DNA from: a virus
Virus genome (UHGV): UHGV-1550212
Direction: 5' to 3' (one strand)
Length of the DNA: 64,000 bases
Made by a program: the position numbers and the translations under genes. Under the pieces are notes generated by a model that was given only the letters and a program-made list of their open reading frames with translations, had not been told where the DNA came from and made no database searches. Positions 8,789-24,723 of the stretch are shown one piece after another. Within the stretch, counting starts at the first letter, position 1; each line of letters opens with the position of its first letter.

Positions 8789-9049
8789 ATGGTGCACATT
8801 GATGGCTTACATGCAGCAGGTCAATATGCATATCTTGGCGTATCATTGTCACAGACAGGCGTCATATACCATGCAAAGTGGACATCTGGTTCTGGTACAG
8901 GACCTCAAGGCCCATTTAAGCCAGGCACAATTATCAGATTTGGCTTGCACAATTCAGTGTCATCAACTACAACGCCTCGTGCAATGCAAGCAATAGAAGT
9001 TGACGCAAAGCAATTTGGGCAAAATTATGCTATATTGTTTCAGCTGTAG
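8789..9049 (+). CDS. Hypothetical protein (86 aa)
   Basis: First in-frame ATG of track ORF 8741..9049 (GTG start); downstream of RuvC-like gene on same strand, followed by hairpin at 9094. Confidence 0.3.
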   Translation: MVHIDGLHAAGQYAYLGVSLSQTGVIYHAKWTSGSGTGPQGPFKPGTIIRFGLHNSVSSTTTPRAMQAIEVDAKQFGQNYAILFQL

Positions 9050-9093
9050 TATTGATTGCAATGGTATGCACTCGTTAACATAAGCATCAAAAA

Positions 9094-9120
9094 ACTCCGA
9101 CAGAATTGTTCTGTCGGAGT
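9094..9120. terminator. Bidirectional intrinsic terminator between convergent genes
   Basis: ACTCCGACAGAA-TTG-TTCTGTCGGAGT, 12-bp perfect stem, A-run upstream and T-rich downstream. Confidence 0.65.
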
Positions 9121-9167
9121 TTGCTGTTGTAAACAGCTGTCTTAATGTTTTGCAATCTATAGCAAAT

Positions 9168-10961
9168 TCAATTTTGTGTTGCAACGTCATCAGTCTTGTT
9201 ATCAACTGGCTCATCGTCGACATGTGTATCAACATCAATGCCAGAAGCTGCAGCAAGTGAAACATCATTAGCGACGCCTTGTTGTTCAAGTTGTTGTTGA
9301 GCTTGCTTTGTTTGAATTGCGACAAGTCTTGCAGCTTCCATTGCAAGCTTAAGATTCTCTTGAAGTTCGATATCAAGCTGTTCAGCATTAGCTTGCATGT
9401 CTTCTTTGCTTAAGCCAAGATACTTGTTGATAAGCCAATTGCTTGAGAAGAATGGGCGTTCAGTATCAGACATGTTAAGTGAACGAACAAGTGAACTGCG
9501 AATGTCTTCGATTGTATGAATACGCTTCTGAAGCAATGTGAGCTCCATTTGCGTCTGGAAATGATTGTATCTATTGAATTTGAGTTTTAGCGCATTCAAA
9601 ACTTCATTGTCGCCAATGTAGTTATTGTTTTTGATGCACATCAAAACATACACAGGCTTCAATATGATTGCAATGCCAAATCTACGCATCAAAGCTGAAA
9701 TAAAGATTGCAAAACGACGCTCATCACGCTGAATTGACTCTTCAGAAACATTCCACATGCCACCGCCATCATCGAATCTGCTTAGAGGCAGCTTTGACAG
9801 ACGTTGTAAGTTATTGCGGAAATATGTGACTGCTGAAGTATCAGATAAGTCAGGCATGCCTGTGCCAATTGTTTGAATGTTGGGTTTGCCTGCATTAGTG
9901 TCAGCCATCCAAAATTCGCTATTGAAAGGCACAGATGCTTCGCCATTAACTTGGAGTTCGCCGGTTTGATTGTCGAATTCAATTTTTTCGTGGTACTTAT
10001 TCATTGCTTTACGCAATGTTTCCTGTGCAGCAGCTTTCAGTTTACCGCCAGTAGGAATTGTGATAAGTGAACGAAAACGAGAAGCTGTCGTAGCATATGC
10101 AATGCGACTTCGCTCCAAAATCCTGAGCAAGTTGAATGCACGAACAAGACGCTCAAAATATGACATAGACCCAACCATGTCATCGTTCCACTGCAAATAT
10201 GCTACTTGCGAATCAAGCAAGTTGATTTTTTCTGAGTTGTTAGACACAAATGCTGGTGCTTTGACATCAAACATTGTATGTGTCTTGAACATATCTTGTT
10301 GAGACTTATCATACTGCCAGAAGAACATTTCACCCTTCTTCATAGGCGTCAATGCAAATGCATTCAACTTTTTGATGCCAACAATATCAGTCGGCTCATC
10401 TGCATTATCAAACACAATCTCATAGCCAAGTCTGCCTCGTACAAGATATTCACGCAACAATGCTCTAACATCTTGTTTGCGAGGTTCAGAGTTCAACCCA
10501 TTGAATGCATACATCAAATAGACTTGCTTGAATGCATCCATAAAGTCATCTTTGATTGTCTGCTTTGCTGTGTCGTCTATCTCAAGTTTATCGATGTCAC
10601 AAAAATCAGGCTCGCAAAAGAAATTACTATCGGAATTGAACACGATGCACTCATCAATCATGCGGTCAAGAATGTCGTCGAGTTCCGGTTCTGCACTTAA
10701 GATGTCATATTTTTTGGCTCGAAGATAACTTGTCAATCCAAAAAGATTCTTTTTAGGTGACTCTTTCTGATTGAACACGTCATCAGTAGACAACACAACA
10801 ACTTCTTGGTCATTGATGTTATGCTCACCTGTATATGCTGCTTTCTCCAAATCTGCATCAGACCCAGACTTGTGCACATTCAATTGCTGCAATGGACTGT
10901 CTTTCGGAATTGAGCGTAATGCATCAGTTCCCAGATATGTTCGTTTGGTCTTTTTAGCCAT
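9168..10961 (-). CDS. Portal-like protein (T4 gp20-like), 597 aa
   Basis: ATG at 10961; ...SEFWMADTNAGKP...YFRNNLQRLSKLPLSRFDD resembles portal core motif (VPLSRI region) as recalled. Confidence 0.55.
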   Translation of the reverse strand: MAKKTKRTYLGTDALRSIPKDSPLQQLNVHKSGSDADLEKAAYTGEHNINDQEVVVLSTDDVFNQKESPKKNLFGLTSYLRAKKYDILSAEPELDDILDRMIDECIVFNSDSNFFCEPDFCDIDKLEIDDTAKQTIKDDFMDAFKQVYLMYAFNGLNSEPRKQDVRALLREYLVRGRLGYEIVFDNADEPTDIVGIKKLNAFALTPMKKGEMFFWQYDKSQQDMFKTHTMFDVKAPAFVSNNSEKINLLDSQVAYLQWNDDMVGSMSYFERLVRAFNLLRILERSRIAYATTASRFRSLITIPTGGKLKAAAQETLRKAMNKYHEKIEFDNQTGELQVNGEASVPFNSEFWMADTNAGKPNIQTIGTGMPDLSDTSAVTYFRNNLQRLSKLPLSRFDDGGGMWNVSEESIQRDERRFAIFISALMRRFGIAIILKPVYVLMCIKNNNYIGDNEVLNALKLKFNRYNHFQTQMELTLLQKRIHTIEDIRSSLVRSLNMSDTERPFFSSNWLINKYLGLSKEDMQANAEQLDIELQENLKLAMEAARLVAIQTKQAQQQLEQQGVANDVSLAAASGIDVDTHVDDEPVDNKTDDVATQN

Positions 10962-10981
10962 TTTTGTATTGCTTTGAATAT

Positions 10982-12220
10982 CTATACACGTCTTGTCAAT
11001 TTGACATGACCGCAGTCATCTGCAAGCAGTTTAACATGACCGCAGTCATCTGCAAGCAGTTTAACATGACCGCAGTCATAAACTTTGACGAAGCCTGCAT
11101 CAATCATAGTTTGCTCATCATGATTGCAGTCAAGCACATGTGTATGAGTTTTCATATTGTACCAATGCAAGCCGATGTAAAAGTCAGTCTTGTGATATGC
11201 GTCAGTATATAATCGTGGGTCATCTATAGACAAATCAAGTTCGACGCAGTCAGCAGTCTGCAGTTGTTCTGTGTCAGTTAGCAATGATTTGACAAGCTTG
11301 ACTACAGCATCAAATGACATCCAATCAAATACAGTGATGCATCTATAGCCATGTTGCATAGCTGTGCAACATTTGTCAAAATGCGTAGTTGATGCAATTG
11401 GCTTGTTGACTGTAGAACGACCAGTAGCAAAATCAAATGCAAATGTGCTGTTATGCGTAAATGACGGATTGACATCAATTAGCAAATTGTCATATCGCAA
11501 ATCAAATGCGTAGCAATCTACGTCATGTTCATATTCAAAATCAACACCAGTATGCTCAAGTAGCATATCATGTAACAAGACGTTTGGCTTTGTAATGATT
11601 TTGCCATTTGCAAGTCTGCACTTCTGAGTTAAACAATGCCAAGGCACGCCATATCGTTCAAGTGTAGTGTTGCTAATCTTCTGCAAATTGCCAAAACCGC
11701 TGCCATAGCGTAATTGCTTTGTGACTGTTTGCTGTGCAACATTACCATTAGCATGACCAAACTTGTTGATGTTTGTTTGCTTGCGCTTAGCATTTGCAGT
11801 TGCAATATCAACAGATTCAAGTGACTCAAGAAATTTTGACATGTCGCCAAGCCCATTGCCATATAGTTGACGTTTAGTGTCAACAACTTTTGTCATGTTC
11901 CAGTGCTTGTAGCCATATCGAGCTTCTTTTGTCGCAAATGCTTTGTCATAGTTGCCAAAGCCTGCATGACCATATCGTTCAACTTTTGTTGCAGCAATTT
12001 TGTCTGAGACTTCTTTAAGCTGATGTTTGTATTCAACGCCAAACTTGCGCAAATTTGATATGCGAATGTTGAACACTCGTTTGACTTTTGTATGCGTAGA
12101 GCCTTTGTCAAGCTTTGCATATGGAATTTGTGCAAGTGCAGCGTCTCTTTCATCTTCAAGCTCTCTTATTCGAGCTTCAAGTGCATCACCAGCCAAAACT
12201 TCTATGCGTATAGTCTGCAT
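10982..12220 (-). CDS. Repeat/nuclease-like protein: coiled-coil N-terminus, 6-7 degenerate TK-x-(E/A)RYG repeats, C-terminal LLIDVNP..THNS domain; candidate free-standing homing endonuclease
   Basis: 412 aa; GDALEARIRELEDERD, repeated ...TKVERYG...TKEARYG...RQLYG...TLERYG; paralog of 16405..17604; C-terminal 30 aa is a triplicated decapeptide. Confidence 0.6.
   Translation of the reverse strand: MQTIRIEVLAGDALEARIRELEDERDAALAQIPYAKLDKGSTHTKVKRVFNIRISNLRKFGVEYKHQLKEVSDKIAATKVERYGHAGFGNYDKAFATKEARYGYKHWNMTKVVDTKRQLYGNGLGDMSKFLESLESVDIATANAKRKQTNINKFGHANGNVAQQTVTKQLRYGSGFGNLQKISNTTLERYGVPWHCLTQKCRLANGKIITKPNVLLHDMLLEHTGVDFEYEHDVDCYAFDLRYDNLLIDVNPSFTHNSTFAFDFATGRSTVNKPIASTTHFDKCCTAMQHGYRCITVFDWMSFDAVVKLVKSLLTDTEQLQTADCVELDLSIDDPRLYTDAYHKTDFYIGLHWYNMKTHTHVLDCNHDEQTMIDAGFVKVYDCGHVKLLADDCGHVKLLADDCGHVKLTRRV
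11004..11079 (-). repeat. Perfect 30-bp tandem repeat x2.5 at the 3' end of CDS 10982..12220
   Basis: Unit ACATGACCGCAGTCATCTGCAAGCAGTTTA; encodes DDCGHVKLLA x3; each unit carries inverted repeat ATGAC-CGCA-GTCAT. Confidence 0.9.
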
Positions 12221-12279
12221 TGCAATTTGTTGTCAAATCGCGAACTTCATATGTTGTCATTGACTCATTCATAGTCGCA

Positions 12280-13026
12280 TCAAATCATTCTGTTATCACT
12301 AACTGCAAAGTTGATATTGTTGTCTTTCAGATATTGCATGTATCGCTGAAAAATCTGGTCAGCTGTCAGTTTTTCATAATGATTCGATGGAATGAAGATT
12401 GCTTTAGACCAATCTTCATATTTGAACTCAATCAAGCCTGTCATTCGTGGTGGCAAATATGAACGAAATGCGAATGCTGCGCCATACTTTGTGACAAGTG
12501 AGCCAACTTGCTGCCATGTCATATGCACTGCAGTTTGTTCAGAACGATACATCTCGCCTTTGTATTTAGACGCAAATGCTTTGAAGACAGTCTCAATGAC
12601 AAGAAAACGAACTTCAAGAGGCAAGTGGTGCAAGTTTACACCCATGCTGACTACTGAGCCGTCCTTTGCAATATAATACGACAATGACAAAATTAACGGC
12701 GCGCAGTCGTACCAATCAAGTACATCTGCATGCTTTGGATTGTCATACACAAACATGTACAATTTCCCAGGTTCCATGTACTTTCTGCGAATCTGCACAT
12801 CAGGATTCGTAGCATATGATTTGAACCATGCAGCAGCTTCTCTACCACCGTTTGGCATTTTGTACCATGGATTGCTTCGAATTTCTTTGCCAAGGTCATA
12901 TTGACCGGACTTTACCAAACGATTGAATAATCGTTGTGCTGCAGTCAATATTGAACGTCCTACTGACTTCGCTTTGTCAATAAAAGACGTTTTTGCTTGT
13001 GTATCTAATGAATTAAACTTGGGCAT
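12280..13026 (-). CDS. Hypothetical protein (248 aa)
   Basis: Track ORF 12280..13041 trimmed to ATG (MPKFNSL). Confidence 0.6.
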   Translation of the reverse strand: MPKFNSLDTQAKTSFIDKAKSVGRSILTAAQRLFNRLVKSGQYDLGKEIRSNPWYKMPNGGREAAAWFKSYATNPDVQIRRKYMEPGKLYMFVYDNPKHADVLDWYDCAPLILSLSYYIAKDGSVVSMGVNLHHLPLEVRFLVIETVFKAFASKYKGEMYRSEQTAVHMTWQQVGSLVTKYGAAFAFRSYLPPRMTGLIEFKYEDWSKAIFIPSNHYEKLTADQIFQRYMQYLKDNNINFAVSDNRMI

Positions 13027-13044
13027 ATCTTTATGCAGCAATTA

Positions 13045-13191
13045 TTATCGTTTCGGCTTTGTGACTACATGCCAAGCATTGCATTCTTGACACCACACAG
13101 CTCTCTTTGCTTGTTTAGCGTTTAGCACTGCTTGCTTAGCTACTTCTGCATTTGCAGCAATCTTGTCATAGCATTTCTTTGAGCAACTCAT
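13045..13191 (-). CDS. Small Cys-rich protein (48 aa)
   Basis: Internal ATG of ORF 13045..13323 overlapping upstream stop as ATGA; MSCSKKCYDK...CQECNAWH. Confidence 0.4.
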   Translation of the reverse strand: MSCSKKCYDKIAANAEVAKQAVLNAKQAKRAVWCQECNAWHVVTKPKR

Positions 13192-13628
13192 TTGAAGAAT
13201 CGTTCTGTAATGATTTTGAACTTGATATTTTGTTGTTTGCAGTATGCAATGGTGGCATTCCACTTCGCAACATTTTTGCGATATGTTTCTTTCGCATAAT
13301 TTGATGCTGACCGACTTGGACATTGTGTTTCATGCCACGGTTTCACTTCAACGATATATGTAGAATCTGCAGTTTTGAACAAAAAGTCAGGCCAATATGT
13401 ATGAGTTACGCCATCAAGCTCATATACAATTGGCAGAGTCTCAGATGACCAAGCAAGCACTTTTGAACTCATGTCACAAAGCTTGCAAAATCTGAATTCA
13501 AGTGAACTGCGGTATATGATTGTCTTGTCTGTCGCATCTTTGCCTTTGTACTTATCTGGGTTCATACATCTGTAGTAGCCTTGCTTATACGGTCCAGATT
13601 TGTTTGGCTTAAGTTGCTTAATGTTCAT
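13188..13628 (-). CDS. PD-(D/E)xK-type nuclease-like protein
   Basis: ...YWPDFLFKTADSTYIVEVKPWHE (D...E-V-K motif); 146 aa. Confidence 0.5.
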   Translation of the reverse strand: MNIKQLKPNKSGPYKQGYYRCMNPDKYKGKDATDKTIIYRSSLEFRFCKLCDMSSKVLAWSSETLPIVYELDGVTHTYWPDFLFKTADSTYIVEVKPWHETQCPSRSASNYAKETYRKNVAKWNATIAYCKQQNIKFKIITERFFK

Positions 13629-13633
13629 TGCAG

Positions 13634-13879
13634 TCACTCATTGTCAGGTTTGACGTCTTTGCAGCCAAACTTATGAACAGCATATTCAAGACCAAGTCGT
13701 TGCAATTCTGCAAATGTCTTGTCTTGTATGTATTCCTTTGGAAATCTGCCATGCCATTTGCCTATTGTAGGCGCACATTCTGAACACATTCGAGGCTTAT
13801 TTTGTAAACGTGCAGACCAATAATAGCCAAGCGCAGTATTTTCAATTGCGCCACACTTTTCACATACAAATAAAGGCAT
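13634..13879 (-). CDS. Zinc-ribbon protein (81 aa)
   Basis: CEKC...CSEC paired Cys motifs. Confidence 0.5.
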   Translation of the reverse strand: MPLFVCEKCGAIENTALGYYWSARLQNKPRMCSECAPTIGKWHGRFPKEYIQDKTFAELQRLGLEYAVHKFGCKDVKPDNE

Positions 13880-13883
13880 GATG

Positions 13884-15263
13884 TCAACTGTTTACTTCCC
13901 ACATGTTATCAATATCAAGTACAGGCCACATTCTACGTTGAAGCTCAACTGTTTGTGACAGTTTGCCTGACTTTGTGTAGTTCCATTTCAATGCAGTGCT
14001 TATGTATTTGCCGCTCAATCGCAAGTTCTTTGCATTCTGAGATACGCTTGGCTGTCGCTTTGGCGAATCTGTTGCTTTCTCATCAGGTTTTGTTGGCTCT
14101 TCAAGCTTGTTCTTGATTGACCATATCTCAACGTTGAGTGTTTTGAATGCATATAGCTGGTTCAGTGTTCGTTGTAATGTGCACGACAAAATTACTCTAT
14201 CAAGCATGCCTTGAGACCAATCATACATTGCAGCAGCTTCATAAAAGTGCTCATGCACATTTGAGTGGTCTGGGTCTCGTTTAGCAAGTTGAATTGCAGT
14301 CTGCTCTGTGTAATCTGCAAAAGTGTCCCAAATCTTATCTGTAGATTCTTGTTTGATGACAGGCTGTGATGTTTGCGCGTATATGCTTTGTTCACCTAAA
14401 TTGTGCTGCATTGACACAACATTAACCGCTGATGGTCTGCGCATAGATGTTGAATTGTATGTCATGCCATATTTTGTGAATCTTGACATCCAATTTTCAC
14501 CATTGACATTGTTATTCAAGATGAGCTTTTGCGGCTTTGGTAATTCTTTGCCGTCAATGTTATCAATTGTTATTGTGTCATCAAGCGGAGTCTCTTCCAT
14601 TTCTGCAAACACATCAACAATCGTCAAACGATACCAAGGGTCAATGAATGCTTTGACAACTTTGTTTTTACCAAGCCACATATGTCGTAATACATGACGT
14701 TTAATGAAGCTTAGATATGTTTCATTGCATTGCAGCCATGTCATTTTGTCATCTGTGCCATCAATGTTTGTGACAAGTCCAAGACCTGTATCTTCGCAAA
14801 TCTTCTTTATGACATCAATGCTTGTCATGTCATCAAATGATTGAACCATTGTTTGCTTCAATGCATCATCGACAAACAAATGTGCAGAAATTCGAATGTT
14901 GCCATTGTCTTGTTCTGCATTATCAATCAAAAAGTCGGCTTTGATGACCTTAAATTCTGTGTCAGCAGTGTTGCCAATGTAAAGCGTTGCGATGTCATGC
15001 ACAAGCGGAAAGTCATTGAACATAAAGTTCGCATTGTCATTAAATGACAACTCAAACTGCGGCAAAAAATCTTTGCCATATGACAGCTCAAAGTACTGAA
15101 TTGACCCAAAGGGCACATTCGTGTTGCACACATACACAAGTGGCACAAGTTTACCTGCAGACTTCAGCACAGATTTTGTCGAGTCTTCATTGACAGGGTC
15201 ATAGTTGACCATTATGTCTCGCACTTCATCAATCAAAGTGCCCTTCAAAACTTCTTTGAGCAT
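13884..15263 (-). CDS. Hypothetical protein, probable virion/morphogenesis component (459 aa)
   Basis: Long ORF, ATG start, in structural gene run; no motif recognised. Confidence 0.6.
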   Translation of the reverse strand: MLKEVLKGTLIDEVRDIMVNYDPVNEDSTKSVLKSAGKLVPLVYVCNTNVPFGSIQYFELSYGKDFLPQFELSFNDNANFMFNDFPLVHDIATLYIGNTADTEFKVIKADFLIDNAEQDNGNIRISAHLFVDDALKQTMVQSFDDMTSIDVIKKICEDTGLGLVTNIDGTDDKMTWLQCNETYLSFIKRHVLRHMWLGKNKVVKAFIDPWYRLTIVDVFAEMEETPLDDTITIDNIDGKELPKPQKLILNNNVNGENWMSRFTKYGMTYNSTSMRRPSAVNVVSMQHNLGEQSIYAQTSQPVIKQESTDKIWDTFADYTEQTAIQLAKRDPDHSNVHEHFYEAAAMYDWSQGMLDRVILSCTLQRTLNQLYAFKTLNVEIWSIKNKLEEPTKPDEKATDSPKRQPSVSQNAKNLRLSGKYISTALKWNYTKSGKLSQTVELQRRMWPVLDIDNMWEVNS

Positions 15264-15264
15264 G

Positions 15265-15729
15265 TCAGAAGATGATTTTGCCTGCTTGCTGATTGATAAT
15301 TACATGTGATGTGCTTCGCCTGTTTGCGACAATTGATGCATTAGATGCTTGTGCTTCAACTTTGTCTGTTGTAGTTTTATTGACTGTCTGTGGAACTGTT
15401 TTTGCATCTGCATTCTGCTTGTATGTCAGCACTGTTATGGCATCATATACAGAAGTCTCAGGCACAAGCAAGATGTCATTAGGCTCAAAATCAAATGGGG
15501 ACTTGCGATTGTTGAATGTCATCAATTGCTCAATGCCGCGTTTATGCGCGTATACGTACTCAGATAAGCCAATAGGATTTGCTGCATACACAGGATGCAC
15601 AAGAGCAACACCGCCGACACCGACAGTGTCAAATTGTCTTGATTGCGTAGCTGTTATGGGTTCATCTGAGTGCAATGTAACATTGTCAAGCAATGGCATT
15701 GCAACATCATCATAATTATCTGTGACCAT
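15265..15729 (-). CDS. Hypothetical protein (154 aa)
   Basis: ATG start; start overlaps downstream gene stop. Confidence 0.6.
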   Translation of the reverse strand: MVTDNYDDVAMPLLDNVTLHSDEPITATQSRQFDTVGVGGVALVHPVYAANPIGLSEYVYAHKRGIEQLMTFNNRKSPFDFEPNDILLVPETSVYDAITVLTYKQNADAKTVPQTVNKTTTDKVEAQASNASIVANRRSTSHVIINQQAGKIIF

Positions 15730-15781
15730 GGTAGATGTGGTTTATGCTTATGAGATTGAGACATGAAATTGAACATCAATG

Positions 15782-16405
15782 TTATGCATTGGCAATTTCA
15801 GATGGCATTCTGAACTTGATGTCATTATACACAAATGTCAATGTGAATGTCATCACGTTCTGGTCTACACGAGTTTTGTCATATGTGAGTTCTGAAATTG
15901 CAGAAAACACGACATCAATGAAGTCGATGCCAAACAATGGTTTCTTTGCACCGCCATATGTCGCTACAAATCTGCAGGGCTGAAAGTAGATAGTTTCGCG
16001 TTTATCGTTAGCGTATCTGAACAAACTCTCTAAGCAACAAAAATAGCTTAAACCACCATTCGTCAATCTGCATGTCACCTGGATTCGCTTATCAAGTGCT
16101 TGATGAATTGTCTTGCTGCCCTTATGAAACTGTGTAATTGACTTCTTCATGCCACTGTCATCAAGAACTTTATTGACATTCTGAGTAACAATTGGCATCG
16201 ATATGCCCATCAATGACACAGACTGAATTGAATCATGCAACAAGTCATTGATGTCATAAATGATTTGTGTTGGTTGTTGCACAAACACTTTATTGTAAGT
16301 ATCAGCAATATCTTGCGGAATCAAATCAATTGGCAAGTCAAAGCGAAACTGGTCTGACCGTGTATCGAGAATGAGCATATTTTTGATAATTTGTTTATGT
16401 ACCAT
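15782..16405 (-). CDS. Hypothetical protein (207 aa)
   Basis: ATG at 16405 overlaps stop of upstream gene (TAATG). Confidence 0.6.
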   Translation of the reverse strand: MVHKQIIKNMLILDTRSDQFRFDLPIDLIPQDIADTYNKVFVQQPTQIIYDINDLLHDSIQSVSLMGISMPIVTQNVNKVLDDSGMKKSITQFHKGSKTIHQALDKRIQVTCRLTNGGLSYFCCLESLFRYANDKRETIYFQPCRFVATYGGAKKPLFGIDFIDVVFSAISELTYDKTRVDQNVMTFTLTFVYNDIKFRMPSEIANA

Positions 16406-17604
16406 TAACTGTCATACGACCAGTGACCACAGTCATACACTGGCACAAATCCAGTGTCAAGCATTTCTTGCTCAATAAAGCCATCATCAAGCAAATGTTC
16501 ACCTGACTTCGTATTGACCCAATGCTTCTTAATTGTGCATTCATCAACCACAAAGGGATTAAGTGCATTGTCAGTGCAATCAATGAACACATTATTCAAA
16601 TGCGCGTCAATGACATGCAGCACAATTTCTGGGTTGTGCCAATCAAATATCATAAGTGGCGTGTAGCCACATACAATTGCAAGTTGTTGCTTCCACCAAT
16701 GATAGTTTGGCTGTTTTGCTTCTGCGGCATTTCGTTTAAAGCCATACACGCTATTATGAGTATGCGTCGGGTTAACGTCAATTAGCAGATTGCCATAATA
16801 CAGGTCATATGATGTTATGCCAACATCATGTTCAAACTCAAAATGCACACCAAGATGTTCTTCAATGTATGATTGCCACCATCTGTTTGGCGCAGATATG
16901 ATTTGCCCATTTGCTTGCATACATTTATTTGTCATGCAAAACCATGGCACACCGTAACGTTCCATACAGGTTTTTGAAATTGCAGCAAGCCATTCATCTT
17001 TGTCTCTATGCGGCCATGCATAACCATAACGCAGACGACATGTTTGTTGAGCTTTAGCAACGATTGGCGCTAAACGTTCACCGTATATTTCACGTTTAGT
17101 TGCGATGGCTTTGCGTGGATTAGTCCATCCAGCATCACCCCATCGCTCAAGCTTCGTTTGCTGAGATTTTTCAACAATCAGTTCAAGATTCTCACCATAT
17201 TTTTGACGACGAGTTTGCATTGCTGCAACATAATCTGTAATGCATCTATGGCCATACAAACGTTCTTTTGTCGCACTATGTGCTTTATCGCCATATGAAC
17301 TGCCGTAGCGTGCAACTTTAGTGGCAATTGTTTGCTTGATGTTGCCTGCTTTAGAACCATAACGAGCTTCTTTAGTTGCTACGCATTTTTGTTTGACTTC
17401 TGCTCTGTTCCAATTATGCTCAACGCCATGTTTACGAAGATGGCCAATTTTCATGTTGTACACGTTTTTGATATGACCATGAGATGTCTTACGTGGTGCA
17501 TATCGTACAAATGGTGTTTCTGCAAGCAACTTATCTCGTTCAGCTTCAAGCTCTTTAATTCGAGCTTCAAGAGCTTCACCAGTCAAATGCTCTACATGTT
17601 TCAT
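16405..17604 (-). CDS. Repeat/nuclease-like protein, paralog of 10982..12220 (399 aa)
   Basis: GEALEARIKELEAERD; repeats ...TKEARYG...TKVARYG...KERLYG...REIYG...RLRYG...MERYG; C-terminus ...NLLIDVNPTHTHNS. Confidence 0.6.
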   Translation of the reverse strand: MKHVEHLTGEALEARIKELEAERDKLLAETPFVRYAPRKTSHGHIKNVYNMKIGHLRKHGVEHNWNRAEVKQKCVATKEARYGSKAGNIKQTIATKVARYGSSYGDKAHSATKERLYGHRCITDYVAAMQTRRQKYGENLELIVEKSQQTKLERWGDAGWTNPRKAIATKREIYGERLAPIVAKAQQTCRLRYGYAWPHRDKDEWLAAISKTCMERYGVPWFCMTNKCMQANGQIISAPNRWWQSYIEEHLGVHFEFEHDVGITSYDLYYGNLLIDVNPTHTHNSVYGFKRNAAEAKQPNYHWWKQQLAIVCGYTPLMIFDWHNPEIVLHVIDAHLNNVFIDCTDNALNPFVVDECTIKKHWVNTKSGEHLLDDGFIEQEMLDTGFVPVYDCGHWSYDS

Positions 17605-18101
17605 TCGTGTTTGCCAGTTTGAAATAACGAATCAATTGGGATGTGAATACCAGGTTTGGATTGAATGTTCCATCCGCGCGCCAAACCATTAAGTACGCAG
17701 CTCGTAAGGTAAGAAAACGCGTTTTGAGTTACTGTTGGGTCAAACATTTGCCACTTTGACGCCAAAATTAACATGGCTTCTGCTGCGACATCTGCTTGTA
17801 AGTCTTTGTCCCTGTAGTATAAACGTCTCTGCACATGTTTGATAAGCAACTCAAACATGTGTATAAGTTTATTTGACAGCTGTCCAGATACTTTGCATGC
17901 GCATATTTCTGCACAAAGTTCTTTGCTGTTGATGTAATAGTTTGATGGCTGACCTCGCTTCTTTGTGTTTGCAGCTTCTTCACGAAGTTGGTCTTCAAGT
18001 TGTGTCAACATGTCATCATCTGACACGTATTGAATATGCTTGTCTTCTGGTAGTTTAGATTCTATTGGTTGTAAGTTTTGCAGTGGCATAGCAGTGAGCA
18101 T
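17601..18101 (-). CDS. Late-transcription sigma factor-like protein (T4 gp55-like)
   Basis: ...SNYYINSKELCAEICACK...NAFSYLTSCVLNGLARGW resembles the gp55 pattern as recalled; start chosen at ATG 18101, downstream of promoter motif (alternatives 18140, 18089). Confidence 0.4.
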   Translation of the reverse strand: MLTAMPLQNLQPIESKLPEDKHIQYVSDDDMLTQLEDQLREEAANTKKRGQPSNYYINSKELCAEICACKVSGQLSNKLIHMFELLIKHVQRRLYYRDKDLQADVAAEAMLILASKWQMFDPTVTQNAFSYLTSCVLNGLARGWNIQSKPGIHIPIDSLFQTGKHE

Positions 18102-18117
18102 TAAAATTCCTATATAA

Positions 18118-18146
18118 ATTGTACAACGCTTTGTGCACATTTGCAA
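18118..18146 (-). promoter_or_regulatory. Sigma70-like promoter (sense: TTGCAA-N17-TACAAT)
   Basis: Direct reading; upstream of sigma-like gene. Confidence 0.45.
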
Positions 18147-18155
18147 TCATAAAAA

Positions 18156-18179
18156 AGCTCAGCCAATTACGGCTGAGCT
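18156..18179 (-). terminator. Intrinsic terminator after 18206..19495
   Basis: AGCTCAGCC-AATTAC-GGCTGAGCT; A5 on plus = U-tract on sense. Confidence 0.55.
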
Positions 18180-18205
18180 TTCATTGAGATGCGTCTTGTC
18201 TGCCA

Positions 18206-19495
18206 CTATTCTTTTGGCAGAAGTTCAGCAATGCGTGACTGCAATTGCTCTTTCTGCTTCAAGTAGCTATCAAGAATTTGCTGATGAGCTGCATAGCCCT
18301 CTGATGTCGGGTCCATGCTCTGCATTGTTACTTGAACTGCAGCAATGTCTGATTCAACATTATTGAGCACTGTTTGATATGCATCAACTTGTGCAGATGC
18401 ACGAATTGCAGCTTTCATTGCAGTATCATAATGTTCACGCCACATTGACTTGATGCATTCGATTTCTGGTGTGCTTACAGAAATTGACTGCAATGCTGCA
18501 ATGAGTGCAACAATGCCGCCATACACTGTAATGATGCCAGACTGAGTATCAAGCATATTGAAGTGATTGCCATCAACTGCATATACAATGATAGGCGCAG
18601 ATTGCAGCTTAACTGAATTGTCGAGAACTGCAAGCTTTGTGAACTGCTGTGCTACTGCAATGACTGCATTGCAAATTGCCTCTGCAGTCTCAAATTCGCC
18701 AGCAACTTGCATGCTAACTTGATTGAGTTGCATATAAGTCTTGACTTTCTCAGCGAATTCAAGTGCAGTCATAACTTGTGAATCAAGCTCAACTGCATCT
18801 TGGCCAACAATGCGAACATGGCCGACAATTGTGTCAGCAAAGAATGCTTCAGTCTTTGGACAATACTGAACAAGTGATATTGCATTCATCAATGCGATAG
18901 ATTCTGCTGATGGCTCAGATGTTGTAGCATACAGCAAATTGCCATCAGACACAGTGAACCACTTGCCAACTACAGGCAGACCCATGATGTCACCTGCAAT
19001 AATTGCAAGCACATGCTGGCAATCACCTGTAGCAATGATGTGTTCGGGATTTGCTGCGTAGTAGATGTCTTTTGCCTGCTTAATGAGCGACTTCACCTCA
19101 GGGTACATGTCATAATTGTCAAGCACGCCATCAACTGCAATTGCTCGAATGATTGGCTCATCAGTTGATGCAACATCTACTGCATCTTCGATTGCTGACG
19201 CAGCCCTTTGCATATTTGCAGAGCCATCACTCATCAAATCCTCCATGACAAGTGATGCTTTGAAGCCAAAGCCATCTGCACCAATTGCTGTTTTCTGTGA
19301 TTTTGCAAATGCGCGTACAGCAGCATCTTTGCTATTTGCGGCGCTTTCCAAAATCAATGCAGCTTTTCGAAGAGTCAGACCAGACTTTTTGATTTGTGCA
19401 AGTGACTCATTGACAAAGTTTGCACCGCCAAAAGTCAATGCTTTGATGCCTTTGATACCTTGAACAAATGCATCAACGTTTACAGTATGTTTCAT
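18206..19495 (-). CDS. Hypothetical structural protein (429 aa)
   Basis: ATG start; Ala/Val-rich; next to Ig-repeat protein gene. Confidence 0.6.
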   Translation of the reverse strand: MKHTVNVDAFVQGIKGIKALTFGGANFVNESLAQIKKSGLTLRKAALILESAANSKDAAVRAFAKSQKTAIGADGFGFKASLVMEDLMSDGSANMQRAASAIEDAVDVASTDEPIIRAIAVDGVLDNYDMYPEVKSLIKQAKDIYYAANPEHIIATGDCQHVLAIIAGDIMGLPVVGKWFTVSDGNLLYATTSEPSAESIALMNAISLVQYCPKTEAFFADTIVGHVRIVGQDAVELDSQVMTALEFAEKVKTYMQLNQVSMQVAGEFETAEAICNAVIAVAQQFTKLAVLDNSVKLQSAPIIVYAVDGNHFNMLDTQSGIITVYGGIVALIAALQSISVSTPEIECIKSMWREHYDTAMKAAIRASAQVDAYQTVLNNVESDIAAVQVTMQSMDPTSEGYAAHQQILDSYLKQKEQLQSRIAELLPKE

Positions 19496-19502
19496 AGTCT
19501 AC

Positions 19503-20993
19503 TTATGCCTTTTTAGATTTGCGCTTTGCGGCAACTACGACTTCTGCTACGATAGCTTCTACAGTAGCTTCAGTTACAACAGACTTGTCTGCAACTTTTA
19601 CAAGAGCTGCATGCAACTTGTAGTTGCCGACTTTGCTGAAAGTGCACTTGAATTCTGTTGTTGCGTTGTATTCTGCAGGTACTGCAAAACCACTGTCAGG
19701 ACCCCATACACCAGTGTCTTCAAATGTCCAAGACTGTCCTTGTGAATCTGTTGCAGCGAATGTCACATGACCATCTTCAGGTGCTTCTACAATTTCATAT
19801 TGCAGCTGAACGCCATCAACACCTGCTTTACCAACGACTTCAGTTGCAAGTGTTGCATTGATTGCAACTTCTGTTGTAGGCTGAATACTTGCAGGGACAT
19901 CTACAGAAATCTTGTATTCTGACACTTCAGGCTGAACTGGCTCAGCAACAACTACTGTAGACTCTGCTTCAACAACTACACTGTCATCAGCAACCTTGGC
20001 AAGAACTGCATGCAACTTGTATGCGCCTGCCTTGCTAAAGATTACAGTGAACTTTGTAGTTGCATTGTATTCTGCTGGAATGTCAAAGCCTACTGCAGGA
20101 CCCCAAGTTCCATTATCGACGAATGTGTATTCATTGCCAGTTGTGTCAGTAGCCTTGAATGTCACATGACCATCTTCAGGTGCTACGTCCACGCCATAAC
20201 GGAACTGAACTTTGTCAACGCCGACGTCGCCAACAGTCTTCGTTTTGAATGTTGCATCAAGCTCAACTTCAGTGTTTTCGATTATTGTTTCAGGTGCAGA
20301 CATTTCGAACTCGTACTCAGACACTGTTTGTGCAGCTTGTTCAAGTTTGATGTTCTTTGTCTTGTTTGAACTCATAGTCTCACGACCAGCATGGCTAATG
20401 TAGCCCTCTTTAGACACTTCCCATACAATTTCTTCGCCTGACAAAACAGTCAACGAATTGCGAACTTCGCCATTCATCTTGATAACTGCATCTGCAGGTT
20501 CTACATTAATTGTCAGTGTAGCTTTGCTAAGCTTAACAAGCTCCACTACTTGAATGACATCATGATTTGTGAGCGTGATTGTGCCCTCCTGAGATTCATA
20601 GCCCTCTTTCGACACTTCCCACTTAATTGGAATGCCTGCGGGCACATTCTCAAGCATCTTTGTAGCCTCACCATTGATTTCTACATGAGCATCTTCAGGC
20701 ACTGGCTGAATTGTGATGCTGAACTTGTCTTTACCAGGTTCAGGGTCTGGTCCGGGTCCTGGGTCATCACCAGTAATTGCAGGGATGATAGTGTTTTCGA
20801 TGACTTTCTGAGCTTCTGCAGTTGTGCCATAGAATTTGAGAGTTTTCTTGGCTTCTTCTACAGACATCTTCTCAAGATTATCTGCAAGATATGTCAGACC
20901 AGTGACTGCAGCAATTTTCTGCCGCATTTCTGGGCTAATGACTACACCAGTAGATTTGACTACTGGAGCAGCTTGTTTTTGTTTCTTTGCCAT
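19503..20993 (-). CDS. Ig-like/beta-sandwich repeat protein (Hoc-like decoration protein candidate)
   Basis: Trimmed to ATG 20993 (MAKKQKQ). Two pairs of internal repeats: ...KWEVSKEGY.. x2 and ..VSEY.....APEDGHVTF.ATD......VPAEYNATT.. x2. Confidence 0.55.
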   Translation of the reverse strand: MAKKQKQAAPVVKSTGVVISPEMRQKIAAVTGLTYLADNLEKMSVEEAKKTLKFYGTTAEAQKVIENTIIPAITGDDPGPGPDPEPGKDKFSITIQPVPEDAHVEINGEATKMLENVPAGIPIKWEVSKEGYESQEGTITLTNHDVIQVVELVKLSKATLTINVEPADAVIKMNGEVRNSLTVLSGEEIVWEVSKEGYISHAGRETMSSNKTKNIKLEQAAQTVSEYEFEMSAPETIIENTEVELDATFKTKTVGDVGVDKVQFRYGVDVAPEDGHVTFKATDTTGNEYTFVDNGTWGPAVGFDIPAEYNATTKFTVIFSKAGAYKLHAVLAKVADDSVVVEAESTVVVAEPVQPEVSEYKISVDVPASIQPTTEVAINATLATEVVGKAGVDGVQLQYEIVEAPEDGHVTFAATDSQGQSWTFEDTGVWGPDSGFAVPAEYNATTEFKCTFSKVGNYKLHAALVKVADKSVVTEATVEAIVAEVVVAAKRKSKKA

Positions 20994-21084
20994 AAGATAT
21001 TGTGAATTTGGTTGTTTATTCTTAACAAAATATGTACATACAGATGCAACAGATGATATGTCAGATACACAAAGCTGCATAAAA

Positions 21085-21122
21085 TGACCAGACTTGCAAA
21101 TAAATTTAAGCAAGTCTGGTCA
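21085..21122 (-). terminator. Intrinsic terminator after DNA polymerase C-terminal gene
   Basis: TGACCAGACTTGC / GCAAGTCTGGTCA, 13-bp stem, AT-rich loop, A4 on plus. Confidence 0.5.
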
Positions 21123-21137
21123 TCAGTTTTGATTGCA

Positions 21138-22430
21138 CTACAACAATGACGGCACTCGTTGAGTTTCAAGTGGGTCGCTGACATTGATGCCTGTGTATGC
21201 AACAAGTCGTTGTATTGGGCCAAGTACGAGTTTTTCGAACATGAGTCGTTTGTTCATTGGCGGCACATCTGGCATATACTTCGGTGTCGGCATTTCGCCT
21301 GGTGCAAAGCCAAATGCATCGCAATATTGACGAGAGCCAATTGGTATATTTGACAAATCTGACTTTGCTCTGTCAACAAAGTAGTAGAACACTCGACCGC
21401 CTTCAATCAATGGGTATCGTGTTTCCAATCCATGTGCTTTGACAAGACAGTTATGCCAACAACATGCTCTATATTGAGGCAGTACACCTTTTGCTAACTG
21501 CCATTCACCATCATAGCTTAGCACATAGTCATGATACTTGTTTGCATTGACATATGCACAAAGTTTCTCCAAGTCTTGCTCGGCTTCAAAGCGTTTCCAT
21601 AATTTCTGTATGAGCTTTGGATATGTCGCAGAAGTTAATTCGCCTCTGAACATTTTCTTGAATGCATAATCAAGCATTTGTCTAACAAGCATTGACGAGC
21701 CTGTTTGAATAAGTTCGATGCCTTTGCCTTGAATGTGCTCAGTAGGGTCTTCGAATACTCGACCATCTACATATATTTGAGCCTTTAAGTACTTTTTCTT
21801 TTGGGCAAATAATGCAGTGTCAGAAATCGTTTCGAGGTCAAATAGCAAAATTGAATTGCCGTGGCGTTTTGCGAGGTCTGCTGCATATGCACCATTGAAT
21901 AACTCTTCCATACGATATTTGAATATCGCAAGAATCAAGTCATACCAATTTTTGCCTATGTAGCCAATTGATTTGACAGTTGGCTCAAAGTGAATGTACA
22001 AAGAGTCTGTATCAATGTACAACACTTTGTCTTCATAAGGCTCTTGCTTTGGCGACACAGACAAATCAAAATTGCCCTTCAATTGTGGGTCATTACGCAG
22101 CTTTTCATGCAATTCATAATCACACCACCACTTATTGTTGAGATAGTCATTTGCTACTCGTTCACCAAAGTGAATGAAGTTGCGGCCTTCAGCAGTAATT
22201 GATTCTGCAACTGCCATATTAAAGAAGTGATAGAAACGATTGCTTGTAGCGCCATATATTGAGTTTCGACAACATTTTGCTGAGACTTGCAGTCCTGCAT
22301 GCTTTAGTGATTCTTGCATTGCAAAATCTCTCAATTCAAATAGACGTTCAGTAGACAACTGGCTTAAATCACCAGTCAAATCTACTCCATCTATTTCAAT
22401 TTTTGACATATCTATCTGAGCTTCTGCCAT
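21138..22430 (-). CDS. DNA polymerase family B, C-terminal fragment (motifs B and C)
   Basis: ...CCRNSIYGATS (KxxxNSxYG) and ...VLYIDTDSLYIHF (YxDTDS); 430 aa; own promoter upstream. Confidence 0.85.
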   Translation of the reverse strand: MAEAQIDMSKIEIDGVDLTGDLSQLSTERLFELRDFAMQESLKHAGLQVSAKCCRNSIYGATSNRFYHFFNMAVAESITAEGRNFIHFGERVANDYLNNKWWCDYELHEKLRNDPQLKGNFDLSVSPKQEPYEDKVLYIDTDSLYIHFEPTVKSIGYIGKNWYDLILAIFKYRMEELFNGAYAADLAKRHGNSILLFDLETISDTALFAQKKKYLKAQIYVDGRVFEDPTEHIQGKGIELIQTGSSMLVRQMLDYAFKKMFRGELTSATYPKLIQKLWKRFEAEQDLEKLCAYVNANKYHDYVLSYDGEWQLAKGVLPQYRACCWHNCLVKAHGLETRYPLIEGGRVFYYFVDRAKSDLSNIPIGSRQYCDAFGFAPGEMPTPKYMPDVPPMNKRLMFEKLVLGPIQRLVAYTGINVSDPLETQRVPSLL

Positions 22431-22451
22431 AAGTTGTTTATTTTTGATTAA

Positions 22452-22481
22452 ATTGTACTACACATGTTGCAATTTTTGCAA
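22452..22481 (-). promoter_or_regulatory. Sigma70-like promoter (TTGCAA-N18-TACAAT)
   Basis: Direct reading; upstream of polymerase C-terminal gene. Confidence 0.45.
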
Positions 22482-22499
22482 TACACATGTTAAACCAAA

Positions 22500-22528
22500 A
22501 TGCAGCAGCAGATGTTCTGCTGCTGCAT
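22500..22528 (-). terminator. Intrinsic terminator after 22572..23399
   Basis: ATGCAGCAGCAGA-TGT-TCTGCTGCTGCAT, 13-bp perfect stem, T-rich sense downstream. Confidence 0.6.
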
Positions 22529-22571
22529 CGGCAGGTATCTTCACAATTGTTTGAGTTGATTGCAATGCGAT

Positions 22572-23399
22572 TTAGAATGGCAGGTCGCCATCATCACCTA
22601 CAGCATCAAAATCAGCAGCAATGTCATATACCAACGTCATTGCGATTCGCAAATCACGTTTCTTAGATTTCAGACGCATGATGTCATGACCTGAATTGTT
22701 TGTGATGACTGAGCATTCAAACTCTTCATTGCCGTCGATGAATGACAGCATTGATTTGTGAATTGTGATTGGCGACAAATCTGACGGATATGACGAATCA
22801 ATCACATATTCAAAGTTGTTGTTCTTGGCAATTAGGCCTCGTTCAGTTGTGCGAATCTCAATGCCGGGCAGTTCCTTGTCACCTGTATTCAATGAGCCAT
22901 ACGATGACATGATGCCAAAGTGATTTGACGTCAAATCGAGCTTTCTCAGATTTGTTGTGCTATCAAACAGCATTGACATATCATTGTCAGACAGCTCAAA
23001 GTAGCCAAGTGATGGCATTGAACAAACCTGATTGATTTTGAGCTGATTGTTTGAGATTACAATGAGCTCTGCAATTGTATCTGTACCAATTTGTTTGACA
23101 TAGATTTCAATCATTGCATATGAGCCAAATGCAGCAAGTACTCGATTGTTGAATTGCGTGCCATTGTAAATAAGCGCCTTGACTGTGACATCTTTGAGTG
23201 TAGACTCATAATGTTCGCAAATGTCAAGCACATTAAGTGTCTGCGACTTTACAAAGCTACTATTGCCAGCATCAGTTCTGATTCGCTGGTCATTGAGTGA
23301 AAAGCTAAGCTTGCCATCGCATTTTAATGATGATGCAAACAATGCTCGCAGCATATCAATGTTTGCATTGCGTAACGTAATTTTGTTCAGATTTTCCAT
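22572..23399 (-). CDS. Hypothetical protein (275 aa); possible sliding clamp
   Basis: ATG start; acidic C-terminus; size and location between polymerase halves; clamp assignment weak. Confidence 0.5.
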   Translation of the reverse strand: MENLNKITLRNANIDMLRALFASSLKCDGKLSFSLNDQRIRTDAGNSSFVKSQTLNVLDICEHYESTLKDVTVKALIYNGTQFNNRVLAAFGSYAMIEIYVKQIGTDTIAELIVISNNQLKINQVCSMPSLGYFELSDNDMSMLFDSTTNLRKLDLTSNHFGIMSSYGSLNTGDKELPGIEIRTTERGLIAKNNNFEYVIDSSYPSDLSPITIHKSMLSFIDGNEEFECSVITNNSGHDIMRLKSKKRDLRIAMTLVYDIAADFDAVGDDGDLPF

Positions 23400-23433
23400 C
23401 TTGTATCTATGTTGTTGATTTTCAATTTAATAT

Positions 23434-23462
23434 ATTGAACAACATTTGTTGACATTTTGCAA
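23434..23462 (-). promoter_or_regulatory. Sigma70-like promoter (TTGCAA-N17-TTCAAT)
   Basis: Direct reading; upstream of 22572..23399. Confidence 0.4.
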
Positions 23463-23467
23463 CATTG

Positions 23468-23842
23468 TCATCGATTGTCGCCTGACCCATGCAATACACC
23501 TCGCAATTTTCGAGACTGCAGTTTCTGAATGTTAAGCTGACAAATGTCAGTTAAGCTGTAGCCCAAATCATGTGCAAGAGTTGCAGCATACCACATGACA
23601 TCGCTGAGCTCTTTTGCGATTTCCTTGCGAATGTCTTCATTATCAAAATCACCATTCTTGTCTCGAATGACTTTTTTGACTTTGTCTGCAACTTCGCCTG
23701 CTTCACCCGTTAAGCCAAGTGTTGGATAGATAATTGCAGCTGATTTAGGATATACTGCGCTATCAAGCGCAGCAGTCTGATATTCATCAATAGTTGAAAT
23801 CCAAGTGTGGTCGATTACGCCGTGTTCATCTCGTTTAAGCAT
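23468..23842 (-). CDS. MazG-like nucleoside triphosphate pyrophosphohydrolase
   Basis: ...LTGEAGEVADKVKK...ELSDVMWYAATLA (MazG EExxE/D-type motifs). Confidence 0.6.
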   Translation of the reverse strand: MLKRDEHGVIDHTWISTIDEYQTAALDSAVYPKSAAIIYPTLGLTGEAGEVADKVKKVIRDKNGDFDNEDIRKEIAKELSDVMWYAATLAHDLGYSLTDICQLNIQKLQSRKLRGVLHGSGDNR

Positions 23843-23843
23843 A

Positions 23844-24335
23844 TCATTTACGTTTTTGTTTGACTCTTAATCGTTTTTGCATAAATGCTCTTGTAGCTTC
23901 ACCAAAAGCCATCTCGTCTCGTTCGCCACCACAAAGCTTTGCAAGCTTATTGAATGTGTCTTGGTCAATCATTGTGTACGTTGAGTTGTTGACCACATGC
24001 AATGCAAACTGAATCAGCGGTGCGCCTGGCTGCAAGCAGAATGGCTCTTTACCTGCATTGTACACTGCAAGATGAATCTCGCCATGATAGTCTGAATCTA
24101 CAAACTCACTTGTTTTGATGATAAGATGATTTCGTGAAATGCCCGACTTATTGTAGGCAATCAATGCATGACCGGCAGGCACAAGTGCTTTGATGCCAGA
24201 TGGAATTGCAATGCCCTCACCAGGTTGCAGCATTGTTTGCACAAAATCATTGGGTATGCAAAAGTCCCATGCGCCAGATTCTGCTGTTGACTTAAAAGGA
24301 CTTTCTACATTTCTGCATTTTGCAAAGAATAACAT
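23844..24335 (-). CDS. dUTPase-family protein (dUTPase or dCTPase)
   Basis: ...FVDSDYHGEIHLAVYN (dUTPase motif III-like). Confidence 0.6.
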   Translation of the reverse strand: MLFFAKCRNVESPFKSTAESGAWDFCIPNDFVQTMLQPGEGIAIPSGIKALVPAGHALIAYNKSGISRNHLIIKTSEFVDSDYHGEIHLAVYNAGKEPFCLQPGAPLIQFALHVVNNSTYTMIDQDTFNKLAKLCGGERDEMAFGEATRAFMQKRLRVKQKRK

Positions 24336-24358
24336 ATTAAGTATGTGTTTGTATGTTG

Positions 24359-24703
24359 TTAGTACATTTCTCGTTTAACAAGAGCTTTGCGTTTTGAGCG
24401 TAGCCCTGCCCTATTACGTAATTCTACTGACCAATCACGAATCATTTGCCATGCAATCCCACCACGTTGAATACCACCGTGCTTGAACATTTCATTGCAA
24501 ATACCTTGAATAAACACCGCATCAGACTTTGTCAATGCGTCAACAATTTGACCATGGTTGTCTTCTGTCTTGACATCATTGCAAAGCTTAAGCTCATCTA
24601 CTGAAAGTTCGCCAAGCAGCTCATAGTAGTATATGAGAGCTTTGCGTGCGGCAATTGCTTTTCTTGAATTGCCAGAATAAGACAAAGTCACATGTTTGCT
24701 CAT
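24359..24703 (-). CDS. Hypothetical protein (114 aa)
   Basis: Trimmed to ATG 24703. Confidence 0.5.
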   Translation of the reverse strand: MSKHVTLSYSGNSRKAIAARKALIYYYELLGELSVDELKLCNDVKTEDNHGQIVDALTKSDAVFIQGICNEMFKHGGIQRGGIAWQMIRDWSVELRNRAGLRSKRKALVKREMY

Positions 24704-24723
24704 ATTCAATTATTGTTATGGTG

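Follow-up and report, generated by a model that had tools for sequence, protein, structure and literature searches.

The gene analyzed here lies in a 64-kb stretch of viral DNA (the window) from a distant T4-like phage, whose portal protein shares 33% identity with the portals of Chryseobacterium phage MA9V-2 and Sphingomonas phage PAU. The gene, which we call copy A, is free-standing: it lies outside any intron and between two conserved phage genes, one for a gp55-like late sigma factor and one for a 198-aa protein of unassigned function (Table 1). An Rfam search of positions 9000..23000 detected no intron or other Rfam family near copy A. The open reading frame (ORF) listed for the downstream gene is 207 aa long because it begins at an ATG farther upstream, one not used as a start in relatives. 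Copy A starts with an ATG that overlaps the stop codon of the upstream gene in the form ATGA, and because of this overlap it would be co-transcribed, and probably translationally coupled, with the gp55-like gene. A sequence-only reading of the window had described copy A as a nuclease-like gene of 399 aa with two recognizable motifs and six repeats. The ORF is as described, and both motifs are in place, GEALEARIKELEAERD at aa 9-24 and NLLIDVNPTHTHNS at aa 272-285. The repeats were undercounted, since we find nine units in copy A.

Table 1. Features of the copy A locus and of related sites, in window coordinates.
Feature	Position	Strand	Basis or remark
Probable Hef-like homing endonuclease gene, copy A, intact, 399 aa	16405..17604	-	ORF; DUF7487; family-invariant residues all present; dN/dS
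N-terminal helix, codons 9-31 of copy A (GEALEARIKELEAERDKLLAETP)	17512..17580	-	conserved across the family in amino acids and nucleotides
Repeat region of copy A, aa 50-219, nine T-K-x-x-R-Y-G-type units (DUF7487)	16948..17457	-	
Vsr-like nuclease domain of copy A, aa 220-335	16600..16947	-	conserved N240, D267, D276, N278, H283, N284, H302, K305
Short C-terminal tail of copy A, aa 336-399 (HW..K...H ... VYDCGH)	16408..16599	-	
Upstream flank, late sigma factor gene, T4 gp55-like, 162 aa	17601..18089	-	phrog_234 'late sigma transcription factor', E 1.7e-7; weak Sigma70_r2
Downstream flank, conserved 198-aa gene, function unassigned	15782..16378	-	
Putative mobile cassette at site A: copy A, last ~10 nt of upstream gene, first ~12 nt of downstream gene	about 16367..17610	-	inferred
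Paralog, copy B, 412 aa, site B between gp2-like DNA end protector gene and portal gene	10982..12220	-	
Tandem repeat, 30-nt x 2.7, encoding extra DCGHVKLLAD decapeptides at the C-terminus of copy B	11000..11079	-	
Empty site E, between 275-aa gene and polymerase part of split DNA polymerase B	22431..22571		filled in L020 and L021

Copy A shares its architecture with a second gene in the window, copy B: an N-terminal helix is followed by about nine x-R-Y-G units, which correspond to the Pfam family DUF7487, and by a C-terminal nuclease domain. The units of copy A, of the form x-[Y/W/H]-G, fall at aa 58, 81, 99, 116, 135, 154, 173, 192, and 216, a spacing of 17-24 aa, with a strict RYG in four of the nine. 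Scored against DUF7487, copy A reaches 39.9 bits, above the gathering threshold of 27 bits, and copy B, with 24.8 bits, stays under it; typical homologs score 85-242 bits. An AF2 model of copy A has low overall confidence (mean pLDDT 62), with values of 70-95 in the N-terminal helix and nuclease core and above 90 for a helix spanning aa 9-29, and it renders the repeats as helical hairpins at low confidence. We presume that the repeat region is an extended DNA-binding module. It is also the most variable part of the protein among copy A orthologs. Specifically, a blastn comparison of the window with relative L008 gave no match across 16959..17513, and among close relatives a 57-nt indel corresponds to one repeat, which is deleted in the window relative to L005, L009, and L010. 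The short tail is what remains of a larger C-terminal domain that long Hef-like proteins have. From the HN motif to YDCG there are 104-122 aa in the subfamily represented in the window versus 216-248 aa in long members, so that about 110-130 aa of the domain typical of long Hef-like proteins are gone.

The affiliation of copy A emerged from profile comparisons. A word-indexed search of 5.8 billion proteins returned only 13 close relatives, and a profile of those 13 had 9141 matches among 1.84 billion representative proteins at E ≤ 1e-3, including 313 at E ≤ 1e-30. The distant matches, 320-900 aa long, have strong DUF7487 arrays and, after these, the same nuclease core, Y-D-[LF]...h-h-I-E-[IV]-[ND]-P-x-x-[TS]-H-N ... 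Y-H-x-x-K ... G-Y-R-C-I-x-I-[FW]-D-W. Annotated phages were reached only with a typical long family member as the query: the long member P0039 matched 410 phage records annotated as "homing endonuclease," "Hef," or "endonuclease domain-containing protein." With the locus itself (megablast) or the 399-aa protein (tblastn), a search of 50,697 phage records returned nothing, and scans of sequence collections with the gp55-like protein for additional loci recovered nothing beyond the same IMG/VR contig or a truncated one. In PHROGs, copy A matched no family and copy B had only weak "homing endonuclease" matches. In a profile alignment with hhalign, the family profile matched the Hef of Campylobacter phage IBB35 (AEF56745) at 96% probability (E 3.7e-9) over 271 columns that include both the repeats and the nuclease; pairwise BLASTP to the same protein was barely significant. 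The IBB35 protein is a stand-in in this comparison, its annotators having noted its similarity to the Hef of phage U5. The Hef of U5, a T4-related phage, cleaves nrdB and is a free-standing homing endonuclease (PMC2988022), and Taylor et al. placed Hef-type enzymes in the Vsr-like family (PMC3239194).

The nuclease domain of copy A has a Vsr-like fold. Neither the copy A protein, the family profile, nor a profile of 34 nuclease domain sequences had a relevant match among PDB chains at E ≤ 10, and the link to I-Bth0305I and Vsr is therefore one of fold. Alignment by hhalign to the I-Bth0305I fragment (3r3p) was weak (18% probability), short of significant sequence similarity to the EDxHD family that this enzyme typifies. 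We paired residues by motif and hhalign anchor, without superposed coordinates, using the 3r3p sequence and Vsr numbering checked on 1cw0. The I-Bth0305I motif I-E-V-N-G-V-Y-W-H lines up with I-D-V-N-P-T-H-T-H of copy A. In this pairing, residues E25, D51, F62, H64, H69, and D97 of Vsr correspond to E170, D196, E206, N208, H213, and D222 of I-Bth0305I and to N240, D267, D276, N278, H283, and H302 of copy A, respectively; the pairing of D222 with H302 is anchored on a G-Y-R strand that hhalign also aligned. The EDxHD composite (E170, D196, N208, H213, and D222 in I-Bth0305I) is matched by D267, N278, and H283 and departed from at the other two of its five positions. Among the catalytic residues of Vsr (E25, D51, H64, H69, and D97), only the equivalents of D51 and H69 are kept, which places copy A outside the Vsr family itself. 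Yet 34 diverse homologs without exception share N240, D267, N278, H283, N284, and H302, K305 is present in at least 90% of them, and Y-H-x-x-K also occurs in the annotated Hef of IBB35. Because N240, H302, and K305 are conserved across homologs and the YH..K motif recurs in an annotated Hef, the substitutions at N240 and H302 are features of the family and not signs of decay. Catalysis by copy A is assumed from this conservation, in the place of a canonical site.

A Vsr-like fold could also belong to an immobile enzyme, either a Vsr-type repair nickase or another DNA repair or processing enzyme acting on the phage's own DNA. We find this scarcely credible for copy A. Vsr (PDB 1CW0) is a mismatch-specific nickase of very-short-patch repair that is not mobile and has no repeat array, and its E25, H64, and D97 are N, N, and H in copy A. 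No sequence match to Vsr was found (hhalign aligned 15 columns at 2% probability), and neither the long N-terminal repeat array nor the profile match to Hef fits such a role. Furthermore, copy A is dispensable in at least 12 related contigs, and there are several diverged paralogs per genome.

We instead put the probability at about 0.8 that copy A is a free-standing Hef-like homing endonuclease gene, with a nuclease domain of the Vsr fold as in I-Bth0305I and with cleavage and homing as its expected activities. Copies A and B are accordingly new members of the known Hef-like free-standing homing endonucleases, in a subfamily with a reduced C-terminus. In the Dickeya phage LIMEstone1, free-standing Hef-like genes adjoin structural genes (PMC3296691). 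The Hef of U5, the LIMEstone1 genes F-LimIII/VII/VIII/X, and the "Hef" of Campylobacter phages CP220/IBB35 resemble copy A in being free-standing between conserved genes of T4-related phages, often beside structural genes (PMC3296691; PMC2988022). Hef-like proteins also share with copy A a T-K-L-E-R-Y-G array, a subsequent Vsr-like nuclease (I-E-x-(D/N)-x4-H, Y-H-x-x-K), and an end in ...YDCG. The window subfamily differs from them in lacking the C-terminal domain of about 110-130 aa (ARKC...HLQG...GGASKLF...), in having a lineage-specific N-terminal helix, and in its core, which reads I-[DE]-[IV]-N-P-x-x-T-H-N instead of I-E-Y-D-G-x-x-x-H. I-Bth0305I (PDB 3R3P), the EDxHD prototype, is a more distant comparison: it resides in a group I intron of recA, whereas copy A is free-standing and has no intron; it has two NUMOD/HTH motifs, whereas copy A has nine DUF7487 repeats; and its E170 and D222 face N240 and H302, with no match at the sequence level. 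The Seg (GIY-YIG) and Mob (HNH) enzymes of T4 have the same lifestyle, with intergenic insertion, presence/absence, rival nuclease genes at one site, and co-conversion of flanks (PMC2988022), but their catalytic folds are unrelated to the nuclease of copy A.

The sequence-only reading had also proposed that the two genes are diverged paralogs, a claim that would fall if they proved unrelated on formal alignment. BLASTP aligned them over their full length at 36% identity (E 1e-75), which is not chance, and they are true and old paralogs. As had been stated, copy A lacks the C-terminal decapeptides of copy B; the 30-nt tandem repeat that encodes these is absent from the copy B orthologs P0013 and L008_B and is specific to the window genome. 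A six-frame HMM search of the window with the family profile found exactly two copies, A and B. A weak tblastn match at 54257..54346 was spurious as a third copy and lies inside a 1308-aa SbcC/gp46-like ORF. Across the phage group, family members occupy at least five intergenic sites, and all have one lineage-specific N-terminal motif. The earlier suggestion that a nuclease-like gene had spread as a selfish element or through family expansion is supported, with the fold search and profile match pointing to a Hef-like (Vsr-like) enzyme; in this case selfish spread does not compete with family expansion as an explanation. One proposed check, target-site similarity between the flanks, was neutral: similarity between sites A and B did not rise above shuffled controls, which leaves the reading intact, the two proteins being highly diverged in their DNA-binding regions.

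Comparison among relatives revealed that copy A is polymorphic in presence and absence at the same site, so that a second proposed check, the search for empty sites, came out in favor. Relatives L005-L010, at 90-97% nucleotide identity, carry copy A. Site A is empty in ten contigs of one close relative (L020-L029; 94% identity in the gp55-like protein) and in two of a more distant relative (L011 and L019; 71-72% identity in that protein). Over these contigs of relatives, at least 12 in number, the empty site has a spacer of 50-51 nt versus 1215-1306 nt when filled, and its allele reads GGCAAGCATGATTGA, spacer, ATGCTTGTACTTGAC. The genome of L020, which is without the gene, matches the window as far as 17601 and picks up again at 16383, break points that identify the indel as the gene itself. 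The presence of copy A is also linked to substitutions at the junctions. The sigma factor gene ends in AAACACGAATGA in all seven carrier loci and in AAGCATGATTGA in all seven compared loci without copy A, and between these two sets the linked substitutions lie at 17610, 17607, and 17604 on one side and at 16372, 16370, and 16367 on the other, the latter being nt 7, 9, and 12 of the downstream gene. Whether the genome is close or distant, these substitutions stay within 10-12 nt of both junctions, and past them haplotypes stop tracking the split between carriers and noncarriers. From the linked substitutions we infer a mobile cassette somewhat larger than the gene (Table 1). This pattern points to a homing target at the junction of the gp55-like and 198-aa genes, with the 3' end of the gp55-like gene as the candidate target region.

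The other sites occupied by the family show turnover of the same kind. Copy B is present in most relatives examined, and in L009 and L010 site B, whose flanks are 95% identical, is taken by an unrelated 372-aa gene encoding a TnsA-like PD-(D/E)xK domain. In the window, a 149-aa TnsA-like ORF at 13188..13637 was considered as a homing endonuclease and rejected, as it is a conserved T4 gp4-like head completion protein. At site C, between the terminase gene and a gene for a 340-aa protein, the occupants P0004, P0008, P0009, or P0010 are 35-64% identical to one another, while the neighboring terminases are 94-99% and the 340-aa proteins 98-99% identical. Site D adjoins a clamp-loader-like AAA gene and is occupied by P0007. 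Site E, empty in the window, holds a family member of 319-320 aa in L020 and L021.

The sequences carry marks of both selection and movement. Comparisons with orthologs give copy A a dN/dS of 0.07-0.08 and copy B one of 0.16-0.20, values from which we conclude that the proteins are maintained and working. For copy A, dS between the window and L009 is 0.054, compared with 0.13-0.28 in the flanking genes; between the window and L005 or L010 it is 0.49-0.51, which exceeds the flanks. With dS below the flanks in one comparison and above them in the others, copy A has a history discordant with that of its neighbor genes, and the low value against L009 indicates recent transfer. These data bear on whether copy A is a decaying remnant, a former homing endonuclease gene whose enzyme is no longer active. 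The reduced C-terminal domain and the noncanonical site, with two EDxHD positions substituted, could be taken in that sense, as could the repeat deleted relative to L005, L009, and L010 and the copy A of L009, in which a CAG to TAG nonsense mutation falls directly before the invariant Y-H. Against this stand the intact ORF of the window and its low dN/dS, the conservation of N240, H302, and K305 with the YH..K shared with annotated Hef, and the recent transfer, and we regard inactivity as highly improbable.

Low dN/dS in both proteins, the retention of copy B by most relatives, and the coupling of copy A expression to a late sigma factor gene are also what one would expect of a domesticated nuclease that benefits the phage by cutting the DNA of competing related phages (marker exclusion), of the host, or of satellites, its presence and absence reflecting the flux of accessory genes. 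Published accounts describe free-standing homing endonucleases that can give phages advantages (PMC13096335; PMC2988022). Such a benefit is compatible with homing, however, since marker exclusion relies on the same biochemistry, and the gene-sized indel, junction-linked substitutions, nonsense allele in L009, and swap for an unrelated nuclease are typical of the life cycle of a homing endonuclease. As an explanation in its own right, domestication seems unlikely.

As a homing endonuclease, copy A would be expected to act as follows. Its protein would bind a long DNA site via the roughly nine helical T-K-x-x-R-Y-G repeats and dimerize via the N-terminal helix, the nuclease domain, or both, as in I-Bth0305I. 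In a co-infecting relative, it would make a site-specific double-strand cut in the allele without the gene, near the junction of the gp55-like and 198-aa genes. Repair of the cut genome by recombination with the carrier would then copy the gene there together with a few nucleotides of flank, the carrier itself presumably being protected by the junction-proximal substitutions together with disruption of the site. In this group of phages, family members have spread to at least five intergenic sites, and their cores would be exchanged by recombination inside conserved ORF ends, ~90 nt at the 5' side and ~75 nt at the 3' side.

The possibility of core exchange stems from the distribution of conservation. 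The first ~30 codons are near-invariant across members that are only 32-43% identical overall. For example, copy A and loci L001-L003 share 85% nucleotide identity over 105 nt at the 5' end, and the protein there, P0004, is only 42% identical. Identity of synonymous codons is likewise in excess at the 5' end, with a mean observed minus expected value of 0.23 versus 0.05 elsewhere (Mann-Whitney p = 0.0026, with shared ancestry left uncorrected). RNA structure was considered as a cause of this nucleotide conservation and gained no support, the only candidate being a 9-bp hairpin that lacks covariation and is disrupted in some sequences. Between phages, the homology at site C extends from the flank into the ORF for its first 91-181 nt and returns ~75 nt ahead of the stop codon; at site A, homology between the window and L008 is lost at about nt 91 of the ORF and starts again after the repeat region. 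In P0010 and P0011 the N-terminal segment is duplicated, which looks like a recombination scar. On these grounds we infer that family cores are swapped by recombination inside the conserved ends. More tentatively, and with considerable doubt, the ends could be portable homology arms: the first ~90 nt, which code for the invariant ALEARIKELEAERD helix, together with the last ~75 nt, are conserved in nucleotides among paralogs at five or more loci, and homologous recombination within them would shuffle specificity and nuclease cores between sites and phages. The N-terminal helix of copy A is proposed as both a dimerization helix and a 5' recombination "handle," and the last ~25 codons as the 3' "handle." The ends may be selected as handles, or they may be kept for protein function alone.

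Copy A is a well-documented but ordinary mobile element. Our analysis gives a function to two genes that had no annotation, in a phage without a close relative among the sequenced phage genomes searched, and it connects Pfam DUF7487 with the DNA-binding arrays of Hef-like homing endonucleases. One phage group displays most stages of the homing endonuclease life cycle, including empty sites, intact copies, a nonsense allele, replacement by an unrelated nuclease, and core swapping, and its empty-site sequences offer a concrete substrate for cleavage assays. If the ends of the ORF do act as homology arms, they would amount to a built-in cassette exchange that retargets a homing endonuclease family, which is not simple site-by-site homing. 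More generally, the Hef-like family is large, with more than 9000 representative proteins, and biochemically almost uncharacterized. Its long modular repeat arrays could serve as programmable DNA binders, should a code that relates repeats to bases exist.

Family members lying between the terminase gene and the 340-aa gene (site C) are only 35 to 64% identical to one another, though the terminases of the phages that carry them are 94 to 99% identical. Homology between these phages extends into the first 91 to 181 nt of the ORF and returns about 75 nt ahead of the stop. Because homology is present at both ends of the ORF and lost between them, we conclude that the core alone was exchanged. Furthermore, the N-terminal segment of two family proteins (P0010 and P0011) is present in duplicate, which looks like a recombination scar.

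Coordinates of the features in the window and in loci of related phages (L-numbers)
Feature	Position	Strand	Remark
Ortholog of copy A	L009:11992-13248		IMG/VR contig UViG_3300045988_149023
Unrelated 372-aa ORF at paralog B site	L009:17556-18674, L010:14067-15185		Equivalent of window 10982..12220
Site C occupants (terminase / 340-aa gene)	L001:10001-11275, L013:2771-4210, L014:4425-5882, L016:6001-7308
149-aa ORF	window 13188..13637	(-)	TnsA-like N-terminal endonuclease domain, phrog_218
Counterparts of variable spot at window 15746..15777	L008:3237-3485, L011:1249-1563
Split DNA polymerase B, whole region	window 21138..26229	(-)
Exonuclease part, 501 aa	window 24724..26229	(-)
Polymerase part, 430 aa	window 21138..22430	(-)

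Near-identical alleles of copy A, the window's 399-aa Hef-like gene, differ in repeat count. When window 17262..17276 was compared with L005, L009, and L010, the window's copy proved to be one repeat unit of 19 aa shorter (57 nt; IRQTNMERYGYPQGPVDVQC); its closest orthologs all have this unit. In the L009 ortholog, one change converts codon 317 from CAG to TAG, truncating the protein ahead of the invariant Y-H..K motif; either the allele is decaying or the stop is an artefact of assembly. A 234-aa fragment from the P0004 protein cluster is likewise encoded on this contig.

Typical Hef-like proteins (P0025, P0034, P0039, P0056, and P0149) carry an extra C-terminal domain of ~120 aa, which the window's subfamily lacks. 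Its motif in these long members is ARKC..HLQG..MTFG..ELLR.C..GGASKLF..SYCD, and its Pfam matches to the Mom family are weak (E 0.005-0.009).

Between the two parts of DNA polymerase B are four genes: a 116-aa ORF, dUTPase, MazG, and a 275-aa ORF. Directly upstream of the polymerase part, L020 and L021 have a Hef-like gene (319-320 aa), and the same spot in the window (22431..22571) is empty. A further variable spot is the intergenic stretch that separates the 198-aa gene from the 154-aa gene: every alignment to the window breaks there, and relatives have an extra ORF of 82 or 104 aa.

Despite its strong endonuclease domain (Pfam E 1e-17), the 149-aa ORF was rejected as a mobile nuclease: it matches phrog_218 "head closure" with E 1.6e-36 and encodes the conserved T4 gp4-like head completion protein. 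The 372-aa ORF combines basic helical repeats with a TnsA-like/gp4-like PD-(D/E)xK domain and matches phrog_15427 "endonuclease" (E 7e-10). This ORF probably represents another free-standing homing endonuclease, a rival for the same gp2/portal site.
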